Virus record (IMG/VR): IMGVR_UViG_641522625_000005
Origin: a virus
Taxonomy: Duplodnaviria; Heunggongvirae; Uroviricota; Caudoviricetes
Strand: one strand, 5' to 3'
DNA length: 23,396 nt
The notes below the pieces were generated by a model. That model made no database searches and was not told the DNA's origin. It saw only the letters and a list, made by a program, of their open reading frames with translations. Positions within the stretch are counted from its first letter, which is position 1. Each line of letters begins with the position of its first letter. Below, piece after piece: positions 2,795-23,396 of the stretch. The position numbers and the translations under genes are program-made.

Positions 2795-5387
2795 TTGCAT
2801 ATTCCTTAGCCCAGCGGGGCAGTGATAATGTCTTAATAGCTGGCCATTCATCGGTATTCAGGCAGTCAGACAGGGTTCGCAGATTGCGGTGATATTCCTG
2901 TTGACCTGCCAGTTTTGCTTCTTCGCCCATCATGAAAATTTCAACCGGATAACGTCCGCATTCAATAGTTGTGCTGGCAACCAGAAAAACGAAAGTTGGC
3001 TGCACTCCAAACTGTGCTTCATAACCGTCACTGTAGAATGCATCCTGAACGTGATAGCGGTAGTCGTAATAAGCGGTTTTGAATCGTTGAATATCCGCCG
3101 TAGTTTTCACGTCCATGATCCAGTGAAATTCAGGGATAATTTTGTCCGGACGGCACCGACACAAAATTCCTGTTTCAGGATCTTCCCAGTAAATTGATGA
3201 TTCAGCGTGTCCGGCGCTTTCAACAAGCCATTGCCCCAGCGGCAAAGCCATAACGCTTTGATACATGAGTTCAATTTTCCGGCCTTCTTCCGCAGTGATA
3301 ACCGTTTTTCCTGTGCTTGCGCATTCCATCAGAAACGCTTTCTCTTCTTCTTTTCCGGCGTTTGTACGGCGGTTAAATTCAGGTGCTACGATAAAGCGGT
3401 TACTGAATTCTTCCGGTTCAAGTACCCGGCAGTGGAAAGCAGTTCCTAAATCGAGCGTTTTTGTCTTTGTGGTGTCCACGGGGGCATTTTTACGCCACAA
3501 ATATAGTGCCGGAGTATCAGCAATGTCATCGAGCTGAGACTTACTGATACCGGGACCCGCGTGGTAATTCTCATTCGAAATTCCGTAATAAATACCTGGC
3601 TCTATGTCTTCTACGATTACGGGATCTGCGACTTCGCCAGTTTCATCACTGCAATCGCGATGCGGATCGCTGCCAGCATTCTCATTGTGCGGATGTTCAG
3701 CGCCTTCCATTTCCTCCGGATCATTTTCCTTAGCTTCAACCTGACTCTCTTCATCGAATGTTTCCTGGTATGTTGCGTCGCCCATCACCGCACCACAGTC
3801 AGGGCAGTTATCCCCGCCAGTCTGGCCGCAGGCATTGCAGGCTATTTCCGGTTCCTGTTGCACTACTGGCTCAGGTTGATTCATATCTGGGCTGGTTTTT
3901 TCCGTTTCTGGCTGGTTCTGGTACACACAATCGCGAGTCTGGATCCCCTTTACCCATTTCGGATCGTTCGGGTCGCTAATTCCGTCAACAAATTCACCAC
4001 GTGATGCAGCAAGCAATTTATCGTCATCGACAGGATTTTTTGATGGAATGTTTTTCCGGGCTTCATGGAGTTCTGCCCGCAGTTCCTGATATTTCGCATC
4101 AACAGAATTTACCTGTGACTGAGCATCCAGCGGCTGCGTGTCCTGATGATGTTCAGTTGCGTCCGGTTCCATTGTTTCAGCCTCTCCCTGTTCAACTGCC
4201 GTTGTTCCAGATGGTTGCGGTTTTTCTTCATCATCCTGTTTTCCTTCTTCTGTTACTCGCTGCGGCATCGGGGCAGAGGAGCGACCGCAGGCAATATCCA
4301 CGATTTCCGGATCAGGGTTGGCATGATCGGTTTCAGTCAGTACTTTGTTCAGATATTCAGTGACGTGCGCGGGGATGACCTCGATCCCAATTGGTGCTTC
4401 TTTTACGGACGCAACCACGATGGCGCGGGAATAATCCAGCCCGCCAGGCATGGTGATGAATTTGTCGCGGAAAACAGAAAAGGGCGGTTTATTTTCAGCG
4501 ATAATTTCCTCAATGCGTTTAGCGTGTGCCGGATGAAGGTTATAGATGTCCAGATCCATTGAACGGGCCAGTACGCCAGTGGCTACGTCGCGCGCCAGTG
4601 ACGTCAGATCGTGTACGAAACCTTCGCCGCGATCGGTGAGGTTTCCGCCGCCAGCATTAGCACCGGAAGCCGTGCGAGTGATGTGTGAAACACGATTACC
4701 CTTCATCCACTCTTTTGTCAGCAGTCCTCGATCGGTGTAGTCAGCGTTCAGGTATGCTTCGAAAAAAGCAGTTATCAGTCCCAGGTTTGAATTACCAGGA
4801 TTAGGGAAAACTTTGTCAGTGTCACGAACCAGTTTGTGGAGTTCGCGAATTTCCAGCGGGTCGAGCAGGCTGGTTTTGTGGGAAACAGCCAGGGCAGTAA
4901 CAGCCGGTAGTTCTTCAGCCCGAGCAATGTGTAATGCCTGGAGTCCGTCGCGTGAAACGTGCGTTACCGGTTTTTCGCTGCCGTGTTGAGCAAGCCAACG
5001 AATGGGCAGTTCCTGGCCAGAAATTGGGAGTAGCATATTCTCCTCAATCTCAGTCATGTCTTCGCCGTTGACGTTGGTATTGCCTTGATAGTGAGCGTTG
5101 TCTGGTGCTGCTCCCGGTTTTAGTTCCCATGTCATGGAGTCTTTGCTGAGTTGATAGCGTTCACTCCAGGTAAAATCGATCTCACCTTCAGCGGGCAGGT
5201 CATTAACGACAGGAAAATTCGTGGCAACAGCTTTAAAATAGCTGCTCAGTTTTTTACCTGACTTAACGATCAGGTAGTCCAGAGTGGCACAGGTCGATTC
5301 AAAATCGTTGCTTGCCCACAGGACGACGTCAGGTTCACCGGATGATTTTTTCGCTTTCCGTAACAGGAAGAGTGGTTTTGTGCTCAT
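2787..5387 (-). CDS. recE: RecE exonuclease VIII, 866 aa
   Basis: 866-aa ORF, ATG at 5387..5385 with GAGG RBS upstream; acidic middle region, immediately upstream of recT. Confidence 0.9.
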
Positions 5388-15599: not shown

Positions 15600-16795
<1,196 letters not shown>

Positions 16796-16985
16796 CAAGG
16801 GGAAAACGCACGACGTGCTGACCGGAAGTGATGACGGTCGCCACAGCAACACGTCTCTGGCGTGGGGAGCTGGCGTGCAGTTTAACCCGACCGAATCCGT
16901 GGCCATTGATATTGCTTATGAAGGCCCCGGCAGTGGCGACTGGCGCACTGACGGTTTCATCGTGGGTGTCGGTTATAAGTTCTGA
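16796..16985 (+). pseudogene. lomR: Lom/Ail-family outer membrane protein, 3' fragment
   Basis: ...GKTHDVLTGSDDGRHSNTSLAWGAGVQFNPTESVAIDIAYEGPGSGDWRTDGFIVGVGYKF, stop TGA 16983..16985. Confidence 0.75.
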
Positions 16986-17011
16986 TTAGCCAGGTAACAC
17001 AGTGTTATGAC

Positions 17012-17039
17012 AGCCCGCCGGTTCAGGCGGGCTTTTTTG
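17012..17039 (+). terminator. Rho-independent terminator after lom
   Basis: GCCCGCC (17013..17019), loop GGTTCA, GGCGGGC (17026..17032), then TTTTTT. Confidence 0.6.
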
Positions 17040-17049
17040 TGGGGTGAAT

Positions 17050-20000
17050 ATGGCAGTAAAGATTTCAGGTGTACTGAAAGACGGCACAGGAAAACCGGTA
17101 CAGAACTGCACAATCCAGCTGAAAGCAAAACGTAACAGCACCACGGTGGTGGTGAACACGCTGGCCTCAGAAAATCCGGATGAAGCCGGGCGTTACAGCA
17201 TGGACGTTGAGTACGGTCAGTACAGCGTTATTCTGTTGGTGGAAGGATTCCCGCCGTCACATGCCGGGACCATTACCGTGTATGAAGATTCTCAACCCGG
17301 TACGCTGAATGATTTTCTCGGTGCCATGACGGAGGATGATGCCCGTCCGGAGGCACTGCGCCGTTTTGAACTGATGGTGGAAGAGGTGGCGCGTAACGCG
17401 TCCGCGGTGGCACAGAACACGGCAGCCGCGAAGAAGTCAGCCAGTGATGCCAGCACATCAGCCCGTGAGGCGGCAACCCATGCGGCTGATGCTGCGGACT
17501 CAGCACGCGCAGCCAGCACGTCAGCCGGACAGGCCGCGTCGTCGGCTCAGTCAGCGTCTTCCAGCGCAGGAACGGCATCAACAAAGGCCACTGAAGCATC
17601 AAAAAGTGCTGCCGCTGCAGAGTCCTCAAAAAGCGCGGCGGCCACCAGTGCCGGTGCGGCGAAAACGTCAGAAACGAATGCTTCAGCGTCACTACAATCA
17701 GCAGCCACATCTGCATCCACCGCGACCACGAAGGCATCAGAAGCTGCGACCTCGGCCCGGGATGCGGCGGCCTCAAAAGAAGCGGCAAAATCATCAGAAA
17801 CGAACGCATCATCAAGCGCCAGTAGTGCAGCTTCCTCGGCAACGGCGGCAGGAAATTCCGCGAAGGCGGCAAAAACGTCCGAGACGAACGCCAGGTCTTC
17901 TGAAACGGCAGCGGGACAGAGCGCCTCGGCTGCGGCAGGCTCAAAAACAGCGGCTGCGTCGTCTGCCAGTGCAGCGTCAACAAGTGCCGGGCAGGCCTCA
18001 GCCAGTGCCACCGCCGCCGGAAAATCGGCAGAAAGCGCCGCATCGTCTGCTTCAACAGCCACAACGAAGGCTGGCGAAGCCACTGAACAGGCCAGCGCAG
18101 CAGCGAGGTCTGCTTCCGCAGCGAAGACATCCGAAACGAACGCGAAAGCGTCGGAAACAAGCGCAGAATCCTCAAAAACGGCTGCCGCATCGTCAGCCAG
18201 TTCGGCGGCGTCATCGGCATCATCGGCGTCTGCTTCAAAAGATGAGGCGACCAGACAAGCGTCAGCAGCGAAGAGCAGCGCCACGACGGCATCCACGAAG
18301 GCGACAGAGGCTGCTGGCAGTGCGACGGCGGCAGCTCAGAGCAAAAGTACGGCGGAATCCGCGGCAACGCGCGCCGAGACAGCAGCTAAACGGGCAGAGG
18401 ATATTGCATCCGCCGTGGCGCTTGAGGATGCAAGTACGACGAAAAAGGGGATAGTACAGCTCAGCAGTGCGACCAACAGTACGTCTGAAACGCTGGCGGC
18501 AACGCCAAAGGCAGTAAAATCAGCCTATGACAATGCAGAGAAACGTCTGCAGAAAGACCAGAACGGCGCTGATATACCCGATAAGGGATGCTTCCTGAAC
18601 AACATTAACGCGGTCAGTAAAACAGACTTTGCTGATAAGCGTGGTATGCGTTATGTGCGGGTTAACGCTCCTGCAGGTGCAACATCTGGAAAATATTACC
18701 CTGTTGTTGTTATGCGTTCTGCTGGCTCAGTAAGCGAACTGGCATCAAGAGTCATTATCACCACGGCAACGCGAACCGCAGGCGATCCGATGAATAACTG
18801 CGAGTTTAACGGATTTGTTATGCCTGGTGGCTGGACTGACAGGGGGCGTTATGCTTATGGCATGTTCTGGCAATATCAAAACAATGAACGAGCCATTCAC
18901 TCAATAATGATGAGTAATAAGGGCGATGATTTGCGCTCTGTGTTCTATGTTGATGGCGCTGCTTTCCCTGTTTTTGCGTTTATTGAAGATGGCCTGTCAA
19001 TATCCGCACCTGGTGCTGATCTCGTTGTTAATGATACGACCTATAAGTTTGGGGCAACAAATCCGGCGACTGAATGTATCGCGGCGGACGTTATCCTTGA
19101 TTTTAAGAGTGGGCGTGGTTTTTATGAGTCTCATTCGTTAATCGTTAACGATAACTTGTCGTGCAAAAAACTTTTTGCCACAGACGAAATTGTAGCGCGT
19201 GGTGGTAATCAGATTCGAATGATAGGTGGGGAGTATGGTGCATTATGGCGTAATGATGGCGCTAAAACTTACCTGCTGCTTACCAATCAAGGTGATGTTT
19301 ATGGTGGCTGGAATACATTAAGACCGTTTGCTATTGATAACGCAACCGGCGAACTGGTTATTGGAACCAAACTGTCCGCAAGTCTGAACGGTAATGCATT
19401 AACAGCAACAAAGCTGCAAACGCCAAGACGGGTTTCTGGTGTTGAGTTTGATGGTTCCAAAGATATTACTTTAACCGCCGCGCATGTGGCTGCTTTTGCC
19501 AGAAGGGCAACGGATACATATGCCGATGCGGATGGTGGCGTTCCATGGAATGCCGAATCTGGCGCTTACAATGTCACCCGCTCTGGCGACAGCTATATTC
19601 TGGTTAACTTCTATACCGGAGTCGGAAGTTGCCGGACCCTGCAGATGAAGGCGCATTACAGAAATGGTGGTCTGTTCTACCGTTCTTCAAGAGACGGTTA
19701 TGGTTTTGAGGAAGACTGGGCAGAAGTTTATACCTCGAAAAATCTTCCACCAGAAAGCTACCCAGTCGGCGCACCAATCCCGTGGCCATCAGATACCGTT
19801 CCGTCTGGTTATGCCCTGATGCAGGGGCAGGCTTTTGACAAATCTGCTTACCCGAAACTTGCAGCCGCTTATCCGTCAGGCGTGATCCCTGATATGCGTG
19901 GCTGGACGATTAAGGGCAAACCTGCCAGTGGTCGGGCCGTATTGTCTCAGGAACAGGACGGCATTAAATCGCATACCCACAGCGCCAGCGCATCCAGTAC

Positions 20001-20412
20001 AGATTTGGGGACGAAAACCACATCGTCGTTTGATTACGGCACTAAATCCACGAATAACACCGGGGCACATACACACAGTGTGAGCGGCTCTACAAACTCG
20101 GCTGGAGCACACACACACTCACTAGCCAACGTGAACACGGCTAGTGCTAACTCCGGTGCTGGTAGTGCATCAACAAGATTGTCTGTTGTGCATAATCAAA
20201 ACTATGCAACATCATCTGCTGGCGCACATACCCACTCACTGTCCGGCACTGCTGCAAGCGCAGGTGCACACGCGCATACTGTCGGTATTGGTGCTCATAC
20301 GCACTCCGTTGCGATTGGTTCACATGGACACACCATCACCGTTAACGCTGCTGGTAACGCGGAAAACACCGTCAAAAACATCGCATTTAACTATATTGTG
20401 AGGCTTGCATAA
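17050..20412 (+). CDS. stfR: Side tail fibre protein, 1120 aa
   Basis: ATG at 17050 ([27 protein letters not shown]...); long Ala/Ser-rich repeat region; C-terminal GAHTHS His-x-His repeats; stop overlaps the tfaR start (TAATG). Confidence 0.9.
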
Positions 20413-20987
20413 TGGCATTCAGAATGAGTGAACAACCACGGACCATAAAAATTTATAATCTGCTGGCCGGAACTAATGAATTTATTGGTGAAGGTGATGC
20501 ATATATTCCGCCTCATACAGGTCTGCCAGCAAACAGTACCGATATTGCACCGCCAGATATTCCGGCTGGCTTCGTGGCTGTTTTCAACAGTGATGAGTCA
20601 TCGTGGCATCTCGTTGAAGATCATCGGGGTAAAACGGTTTATGACGTGGCTTCCGGCAACGCGTTATTTATTTCTGAACTCGGTCCGTTACCGGAAAATG
20701 TTACCTGGTTATCGCCGGAAGGGGAGTTTCAGAAGTGGAACGGCACAGCCTGGGTGAAGGATACGGAAGCAGAAAAACTGTTCCGGATCCGGGAGGCGGA
20801 AGAAACAAAAAACAACCTGATGCAGGTAGCCAGTGAGCATATTGCGCCGCTTCAGGATGCTGCAGATCTGGAAATTGCAACGGAGGAAGAAATCTCGTTG
20901 CTGGAAGCATGGAAAAAGTATCGGGTATTGCTGAACCGTGTTGATACGTCAACTGCACAGGATATTGAATGGCCAGCACTGCCGTAG
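20412..20987 (+). CDS. tfaR: Tail fibre assembly protein, 191 aa
   Basis: ATG at 20412 overlapping the stfR stop; 191 aa, the typical Tfa position. Confidence 0.9.
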
Positions 20988-21084
20988 GGTAAAACATATA
21001 AATTCTATAATTAGATGTATCTTTCCATTTACGGCAAGGAAGGGGGCTTGGAAGACGTAAAGCATCTCACACCGAGATTATTTT

Positions 21085-21675
21085 TTATATGTCAGGTGTC
21101 TGAAGTTTTGCTTTGGCTCTTAAAATGGTTTGCCGCGAGGTTTTGAATTCCCGGGCAATGGCACTTATACTTACACCTGACTTAATTCGTTCGAATACCA
21201 CCTGTTTCTGTTCTTCATTTAACACAGGAGGTCGACCAAAACGTTTCCCTGCGCCGCGGGCTCTTACTATCCCGGAATGAGTGCGTTCAAGTAAAAGGTC
21301 TCGTTCAAATTCAGCGACTGCTGAAATTACTTGCATCATCATTTTTCCTGTTGGACTGGTCAGGTCAATGCCACCCAATGCTAAGCAATGCACTCTGATA
21401 CCTGTTTCGGTCAGTTGTTCCACTGTTTTCCTGATATCCATTGCATTACAACCAAGGCGATCCAGTTTTGTCACAATCAATTGATCACCACATTTCAGGC
21501 GAGCAAGCAACCGGTTAAAACCAGGACGCTCACTGGTTGCTGCTGAGCCGCTAATGTGTTCTTCGATTATTTGCTGAGGTTTGATTTTAAAACCTGCACT
21601 TTCGATTTCCCGGCGTTGATTTTCGGTGGTCTGATCCAGCGTTGATATCCGACAGTAAGCAAAAATTCGAGACAT
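21085..21675 (-). CDS. pinR: Serine-recombinase DNA invertase (Pin/Gin/Hin family), 196 aa
   Basis: N-terminal catalytic region [23 protein letters not shown]... (Ser in RIST) and C-terminal HTH; convergent with tfaR. Confidence 0.9.
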
Positions 21676-21991
21676 AGTGAGACTCTATACGAAATTGGTG
21701 TTCATATCATAATGCATCTCAGAAAATAATTATGATTATTTTTGTGCATATTTGTATGTACACGTTCGAAAATAAACGAATGCGTATGCAACCCCGTAAT
21801 TTTGGTGAGACCCAAAATCGATTTTGTGAAAAATGGCTTTAACTCGGTTTGTTTTTCGAGTTCCGGGCGGACTCAAGGAAGAAGAATAGTGTTGCGTGTT
21901 ATTTTAACCAGATTTCAAGTTGTTTGGTCGTGGAAAAGTGGAGCAAAATGTTGTTAAAGTGGAAAAATGATAAAAAAGTAAGTTTATTATA

Positions 21992-22225
21992 TTACATTTT
22001 ACCATTTAAATTTTGGTTGTCTTTAAGAACTGATATCGCTGTTTGTAATAATTCTTTGTTATCCAGCCATGATGTTTTCTTTATGTTTCCTTCAATGTAA
22101 TCAAGCAATGTTCTGGTATTGATAGGTCTTCCCTGTTTTGCTACTTCCACTACAGCATCCCCTAGGATAATTCTTACTTCAGGAAGCTGCGCAGGGAACC
22201 ACTTTAGGGTGTCTTTTGATTTCAT
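21992..22225 (-). CDS. ynaE: YnaE small protein, 77 aa
   Basis: ATG at 22225..22223 preceded by AAGGA; an in-frame ATG at 22258 would give 88 aa. Confidence 0.7.
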   Translation of the reverse strand: MKSKDTLKWFPAQLPEVRIILGDAVVEVAKQGRPINTRTLLDYIEGNIKKTSWLDNKELLQTAISVLKDNQNLNGKM

Positions 22226-22347
22226 GAAGATATTCCTTAAAATATTATTGATTTTCATTGCGATATTGTATGTCTGATTCAGGATATGTTGACTTATACA
22301 TCGGTTTTGTCTGGGTTATTGGATATGCCAATCCCTAATTTTATTAG

Positions 22348-23396
<1,049 letters not shown>

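Follow-up and report, generated by a model that had tools for sequence, protein, structure and literature searches.

Within the 3' part of pinR in the Rac prophage of Escherichia coli K-12 lies a short stretch of DNA that resembles one half of the crossover sites used by the Gin/Pin family of invertases. This raises the question of whether PinR is an invertase that carries a recombination site in its own gene or whether the stretch is merely coding sequence, and, beyond that, what kind of recombinase PinR is. The DNA that was analysed (23,396 nt, hereafter the window) is the K-12 Rac prophage. Positions 20300-22350 are identical to the K-12 derivative NEB10-beta (100% over the full length), and the gene order lomR::IS5, stfR, tfaR, pinR, ynaE, ynaM is the same as in MG1655. 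The pinR gene is convergent with stfR-tfaR and has its 3' end toward the tail-fibre genes, from which it is separated by a tfaR-pinR spacer of 97 bp; such a location of pinR or pinQ beside lambdoid tail-fibre genes is found in about half of the complete E. coli genomes and also in free phages. The coordinates of the features that are discussed in the following are collected in the table.

Table. Features in and around pinR of the Rac prophage, in window coordinates, with the corresponding sites of relatives
Feature	Position	Strand	Description
pinR	21085-21675	minus	196 aa, small serine recombinase with Resolvase and HTH_7 domains (Pfam)
gix-like stretch	21124-21150	minus	PinR codons 176-184, E-F-K-T-S-R-Q-T-I, recognition-helix region of HTH_7
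Gin-type half-site look-alike in pinR	21139-21150	minus	GAATTCAAAACC, followed by central TC at 21137-21138
Top-scoring Gin-type half-site look-alike of the window	19702-19713 (stfR)	minus	TTCCTCAAAACC, 13.7 bits, encodes GFEE
Cys76 codon of PinR	21448-21450	minus	TGT; the equivalent residue of gamma-delta/Tn3 resolvase is the catalytic Arg71
Putative res relic, whole	21683-21788	minus	homologous to the three-subsite array of relatives; five of six half-sites degenerate
Putative relic of res subsite I (crossover)	21763-21788	minus	CATACGCAT-TCGTTTAT-TTTCGAACG; half-sites 3.9 and 5.7 bits, those of intact relatives 11-17 bits
Putative relic of res subsite II	21717-21748	minus	32 bp, TGCACAAAA...TTTCTGAGA; half-sites 3.3 and 1.0 bits
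Putative relic of res subsite III	21686-21710	minus	beside the pinR start codon; distal half-site -0.7 bits
Proximal half-site of subsite III	21686-21694	minus	TATACGAAA, 14.1 bits, the sole well-kept one
res of relatives			subsite I, 26-bp inverted pair; subsite II, 32-bp inverted pair; subsite III, two proximal half-sites, 13 bp apart, beside the start codon
Intact subsite I of the IncF-plasmid relative			TGTCCGAAATCGACCGGTTTCGGACA

Some further observations concern the surroundings of the gene. A recurrent mosaic junction is located at 20865-20876, within the 3' end of tfaR, and many E. coli prophages with unrelated fibre genes have nothing else in common here than the spacer, pinR, ynaE/ydfK, and ynaM/ynfT, together with the terminal 110-125 bp of tfa; in two such prophage loci (L001, L002) the shared tfa remnant is annotated as an N-terminally truncated pseudogene. 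Two IS5 transposase genes are present (15747-16727 and 22380-23396), one of them within lomR as in MG1655, the second directly past ynaM at the end of the window. When the flank was compared, NEB10-beta matched the whole query of 2,051 nt and an MG1655-type record ended 3 nt earlier. This hints at a source of the DH10B lineage with an extra IS5.

The gix-like stretch within pinR

The reverse complement of 21124-21150 reads GAATTCAAAACCTCGCGGCAAACCATT, exactly as the initial annotation had given it, and the consensus to which it had been compared, TTATCCAAAACCTCGGTTTACAGGAA, turned out to be precisely the 26-bp sequence that AF083977 has for the gixL and gixR sites of phage Mu. The likeness that had been claimed for the left half exists in part. 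Nine of 12 positions of the gix half TTATCCAAAACC-TC agree in register with GAATTCAAAACC, and the central TC is also shared, but the 11-mer TCAAAACCTCG that had been quoted for the match does not occur in gix, which has TCCAAAACCTCG, and the longest exact run that the stretch and gix have in common is not 11 but 10 nt long (CAAAACCTCG). The good half also has a correctly placed A-tract and a CC beside the core. The right half had been described as not matching the consensus, and indeed only 3-4 of its 12 positions agree.

The weight of such a likeness was assessed with half-site matrices, the first of which was made from sites read from Mu, e14, and P1, plus hixL, and the second by extension of this set with six published crossover sites from prophages of E. 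coli EC958 (PMC4134206, Table 3). A preprint on a 'pinR' of Salmonella Senftenberg was discarded as a source of sites, as it concerns a hin-like gene of the fljAB switch and holds no site information. Ten true Gin/Cin/Pin sites score 14-32 bits, whereas the best 26-bp Gin-type candidate that the scan of the window brought up, a scan that had been proposed along with the annotation, reaches 8.7-9.4 bits. The stretch itself, taken as a full site, scores -3.9 bits with the first matrix and -8.3 bits with the ten-site matrix, which corresponds to ranks 265 and 632, respectively, among the 23,371 positions of the window. Its good half scores 9.2 and 8.8 bits with the two matrices and is thereby 10th to 14th among the half-sites of the window, about a dozen equal or better half-sites being found elsewhere, and for the second half the two matrices give -13 to -17 bits. 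The best look-alike of the window lies in stfR, where it outscores the one in pinR; it is also without a partner half and does not code for the NLGL motif found at the junctions of invertible fibre genes.

A similar picture emerges from 300 first-order Markov simulations of the window, by which chance expectations were estimated. Exact runs of 10 nt in common with gix are expected 0.85 times per window and those in common with any of five true sites 5.1 times (4 were observed). For matches to the 11-mer of the initial annotation with at most one mismatch, the expectation is 0.52 per window. If the expectation for the 10-nt runs is limited a priori to pinR and 100 nt on either side, it falls to 0.03 for gix alone and to 0.17 for any of the five sites, and the position within pinR, with its expectation of about 0.03 for gix alone, is thus at most a nominal hint of something other than chance. 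From the matrix ranks and the Markov expectations, it therefore follows that the gix likeness of 21124-21150 is at chance level.

That stfR and tfaR contain no partner site had been noted before, and the two matrices and the gix 26-mer did not reveal any such site in the remainder of the 23.4-kb window either; even with up to 3 mismatches, the gix 26-mer had no match in the window. A tail-fibre junction motif of the NLGL type was not found in StfR, and a search of 16900-22400 for long inverted repeats flanking stfR-tfaR yielded only short pairs at chance level, with 53 inverted pairs of at least 11 nt in the surrounding 5.5 kb. The tfaR-pinR spacer was also considered as the place of a relic site, but nothing scored there with either matrix. 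In the E. coli population, 160 nt centred on the stretch are colinear in 2,693 of 2,699 records, and no rearrangement junction at the stretch was seen in this set; the breakpoints among the sampled rows are at 20865-20876, 20974-20978, 21041, 21174, and 21326, and none is at 21137. A published BLAST survey likewise reports inversions in e14 only and not in Rac or Qin (PMC12529663). With neither an invertible segment nor a partner site around its gene, PinR in Rac is an orphan, and to this extent its description as an orphan invertase was appropriate; the second half of that term is another matter, to which the DNA-binding domain and the res sites of relatives are relevant (see below).

In comparison with the known invertase systems, the stretch is unusual in its position. 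In Mu, gixR is located 67 bp upstream of gin, and in e14, pixR (4606-4631 of the e14 locus L005) is located upstream of pinE, whereas the Rac stretch lies inside pinR. In P1, cixL overlaps the stop codon of cin, and the stretch is likewise found in or near a serine recombinase gene, but it lies 37-63 nt inside of it (codons 176-184 of 196), and in the protein alignment it falls on the recognition helix of Cin and not on the terminus, so that its position does not correspond to that of cixL. None of the Mu, e14, and P1 sites lies within the part that codes for the helix-turn-helix, and unlike Gin, Cin, Pin, and Hin sites, the stretch lacks a second half-site as well as an inverted partner and an invertible segment. 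It could be imagined that an invertible tail-fibre segment once existed beside the 3' end of pinR and that the stretch is the eroded crossover site at its boundary, which would be in line with cixL at the cin stop codon and with the orientation of pinR toward the tail-fibre genes. With the stretch being inside the gene, at the recognition helix and unaligned with the cin terminus, this is highly improbable, also because plasmid relatives without neighbouring tail-fibre genes code for the peptide of the stretch as well, because the PinR family has sites of another type, located upstream of the gene, and because the module boundary across genomes is at the tfa 3' end (20865-20876) and not at the stretch. 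In addition, the free phage HannyBb has an identical PinR beside a single set of fibre genes, without any alternative set.

Serine invertases require identical core dinucleotides for strand exchange. The stretch has the core TC/GA, as has Mu gix with its TC, but e14 pixL and pixR both have TT/AA, and a strand exchange of the stretch with pix would consequently leave mismatched overlaps; the pix sites of e14 are the only Gin-type sites in K-12, as Mu is absent from this genome. The stretch had been regarded as a quasi-site within the recombinase's own gene, analogous to the cixQ quasi-sites of P1 Cin, which were reportedly defined by Iida and Hiestand-Nauer (1986/1987) via recovered recombination products. 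The concept is alike, as in both cases a poor, half-matching site would be used by an invertase at low frequency, but recombination products were recovered for cixQ and none have been seen for the stretch, which moreover has the core TC and not the TT of e14 pix. The analogy could not be upheld: only one half resembles the consensus, and this at a level that is reached at about a dozen other places, the 2,699 E. coli records show no junction at the stretch, and the motif is lost in relatives. That the stretch serves as a weak Gin/Pin-type crossover site, occasionally used by PinE, the genuine Gin-family invertase of K-12, or by over-produced PinR/PinQ in rare rearrangements between Rac or Qin and e14, is therefore very unlikely. 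Its one half-site with 9 of 12 matches and with the A-tract and the CC in place would fit such a use, Cin quasi-sites are documented in the literature, and a stimulation of inversion at pix sites by PinQ/PinR has been reported (PMC12529663), but against this stand the second half with its strongly negative scores, the equal or better half-sites elsewhere in the window including the 13.7-bit one in stfR, the deviating core, the colinearity of nearly all records, and the survey without Rac or Qin inversions.

What remains is the coding function of the stretch. The sequence AREF-x-T-[ST]-RQTI is present in 115 of 120 representatives of the PinR subfamily, and relatives with 57-83% identity keep the peptide in the EFKTSRQTI region but not its DNA, which reads GAGTTTAATACCACC, GAATTCAAGACGACT, or GAATTCAAAACCAGC. 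The closest non-prophage relative, encoded on an IncF plasmid (83% protein identity), has GAATTCCGAACCACA instead of the gix-like run. The DNA motif is lost in these relatives at synonymous or conservative positions, and since the peptide is nearly invariant while the DNA differs, the gix-like 10-nt run appears to depend on the codons AAA (Lys), ACC (Thr), and TCG (Ser) of the Rac/Qin lineage. The two prophage alleles, with an overall nucleotide difference of about 10%, have no substitution in 21116-21150. An extra conservation of the stretch at the DNA level was nevertheless rejected, as other unchanged runs in the same allele pair are as long as these 35 nt or longer, as the peptide is invariant there, and as the homologue on the IncF plasmid lacks the run.

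A 12-nt inverted repeat (21088-21099 and 21173-21184, 11 of 12 positions complementary) has its centre within 1.5 nt of the centre of the stretch. Together with the unchanged 21116-21150, this could be taken to mean that the stretch or the flanking repeat acts as DNA or RNA, for example as a site for a PinR monomer or in an mRNA structure. Such a regulatory role can hardly be assumed, however. Ordinary codons make up the two arms of the repeat (TPDI and KSGV), there are many similar pairs nearby (the 53 pairs mentioned above), and the repeat is thus probably due to chance. The stretch scores -1.6 bits on the half-site matrix of the PinR subfamily, which is why it does not appear to be a cognate-type half-site for this subfamily either, the motif is lost in relatives, and half a subsite is insufficient for binding by a related resolvase (PMC12217951). 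It is thus very likely that the stretch 21124-21150 is a coding by-product without site function and not a real feature; it would have no DNA function of its own and would merely code for EFKTSRQTI in the recognition helix of PinR.

PinR and the res arrays of its relatives

If the stretch is not the site, the question arises to which type of serine recombinase PinR belongs. The protein has a PF00239 domain (125 bits) and a PF02796 domain (43 bits) and shares 35-38% identity overall with Gin, Cin, and PinE. In the DNA-binding domain, the identity to these three invertases is only 11-18%, whereas they share about 60% among themselves in this part, and it is 52-75% with those relatives of PinR that have res arrays. 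In comparisons with PDB entries, Gin is found with 105 bits and gamma-delta resolvase with 83 bits, gamma-delta and Tn3 resolvases having E-values of about 1e-22, and by sequence PinR thus seems to be about as near to the gamma-delta/Tn3 resolvases as to Gin. Homologues with 60-90% identity are found in 1,858 plasmid records and also in many Proteobacteria. Rare chimeric PinR proteins (P0004-P0008) consist of an N-terminal part of the IncF-plasmid type, with Arg76, and a C-terminal part of the Rac type. This composition suggests either a homologous exchange between plasmid resolvase genes and prophage pinR or else chimeras of assembly; the proteins are singletons and mostly encoded on short contigs.

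At the loci of seven divergent relatives, a conserved array of about 115 bp with TGT(A/C)CGAAA half-sites is found directly upstream of the recombinase gene, with position and spacing being kept. Three plasmids outside of this model set have the same array with the same distances, and the profile detects them with E-values of 1e-27, 2e-22, and 1e-9, so that a res of three subsites upstream of the gene was found in ten relatives. According to the rule for res of the Tn3 type, such a site is about 120 bp long and has three dimer-binding subsites, of which subsite III adjoins the start codon (PMC12217951). The arrays of the PinR relatives are like Tn3/gamma-delta res in having three differently spaced subsites, a proximal subsite III, and half-sites of the TGTCCGAAA kind. 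They differ in that subsite I has 26 bp in the PinR subfamily and 28 bp in Tn3/gamma-delta res, and in that the proximal subsite of the PinR subfamily looks like two half-sites in direct orientation. The upstream arrays in the relatives are probably functional res sites. In a relative from Sphingobium that has a different recognition helix, different repeats (TATCTAAAA) are found at the same positions, which is a co-variation of helix and repeats, albeit in a single case. In Erwinia oleae (L020), another PinR-like gene with TGTACGAAA repeats of its own lies upstream of the PinR homologue, the two genes being arranged back to back in divergent orientation.

The designation of PinR as a Gin/Pin-type invertase is doubtful, because its DNA-binding domain is that dissimilar from those of Gin, Cin, and PinE and because its relatives have a Tn3-type res with a different half-site. 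PinR rather belongs to a mostly plasmid-borne subfamily of small serine recombinases, in which the cognate site would be the res directly upstream of the gene.

The region upstream of Rac pinR and residue 76

A DNA profile of the res of the seven relatives matches the window only once, at 21683-21771 directly upstream of pinR (E = 7.9e-8). The intact half-sites of the relatives mostly score about 10-17 bits, and by this measure only the half-site next to the pinR start codon is well kept (see table). The Rac subsite I as a pair scores 9.7 bits, which is within the shuffle null, as compared to 33.9 bits for the site of the IncF plasmid, and its left half is not alignable with the res of the relatives. 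The same decay is found in the other E. coli prophage allele and in phage HannyBb, and a second paired site of the PinR type (res-like) above the shuffle null was not detected elsewhere in the window. The Rac region thus appears to be a relic and not an intact res. PinR would then be an orphan by erosion of its own res and not by loss of an invertible tail-fibre segment. As the recognition helix of PinR is nearly identical to that of the relatives with intact res, PinR probably still prefers half-sites of the TGTMCGAAA type. An AT-rich short dyad, ATTTTGG-tgagac-CCAAAAT, is located at about 21790-21815, in that part of the ynaE-pinR spacer which separates the res relic from ynaE. The scan for promoters and terminators around pinR did not list this dyad as a terminator and as a whole gave nothing decisive.

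An orphan resolvase with an intact-looking gene in a chromosomal mobile element and with a non-working res has likewise been described for SGI1 (PMC12217951). In that case, an integron has inserted into the res and split it, and the site can be restored, whereas the Rac res is eroded by point changes and the enzyme in addition has a Cys at the position of a catalytic Arg. In alignments, the LDRLGR of gamma-delta, Tn3, Gin, PinE, and Cin corresponds to LDRLGC in PinR. Arg is present at the position of residue 76 in 112 of 120 family representatives, and Cys in only five, all of which are clusters of prophage PinR/PinQ that together stand for several thousand sequences. The catalytic set Y6, R8, S10, D36, R68, and R71 (Tn3 numbering) is thereby incomplete in PinR/PinQ at R71, which is Cys76, the others being present, with a Glu replacing D36 throughout the PinR subfamily. 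In Tn3 resolvase, recombination is abolished and cleavage reduced about 1000-fold upon mutation of any of six residues, among them R71, and R71A as well as R71K abolish recombination (PMC2794168). It is likely that Cys76 impairs catalysis by PinR. With a dN/dS of 0.33 for the pair of prophage alleles and of 0.15-0.20 for prophage genes compared with plasmid genes, the constraint on pinR is relaxed but not absent.

PinQ, PinR, and the P segment of e14

PinQ, which is 99% identical to PinR, has been related to inversion of the P segment of e14 in a paper from 2025, of which a preprint version deals with PinR. According to this paper, over-produced PinQ raised P-segment inversion from about 30% to 88% and gave protection against T2, and the P segment was locked in pinE and in pinE pinQ mutants; an in vitro recombination assay does not appear among the section headings of that paper (PMC12529663). 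The pix sites of e14 (2779-2804 and 4606-4631 of L005) score 3-5 bits on the half-site matrix of the PinR subfamily. A direct catalysis by PinQ or PinR at pix would be in tension with the comparison of the domains, with the res relic, and with Cys76, and if PinQ acts directly on the P segment, a recognition of Gin-type half-sites by PinR would have to be assumed after all.

It is possible, although on balance somewhat doubtful, that PinR and PinQ are exapted plasmid-type resolvases whose res has eroded and whose catalytic Arg has changed to Cys, and that they have been kept for a role other than that of a recombinase acting in cis. This role may be that of a DNA-binding regulator that uses the one surviving half-site in the promoter, or that of a modulator of PinE, and the latter option could reconcile the stimulation of P-segment inversion by PinQ with the locked P segment in the pinE mutant. 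The gix-like stretch has no part in such an exaptation, and nothing new on DNA inversion follows from 21124-21150. PinR and PinQ are annotated, named, and discussed as Pin-type invertases, but the evidence gathered here would place both with the res-dependent resolvases, and this placement, together with the missing catalytic Arg, bears on the claim from 2025 that PinQ and PinR invert the P segment of e14.
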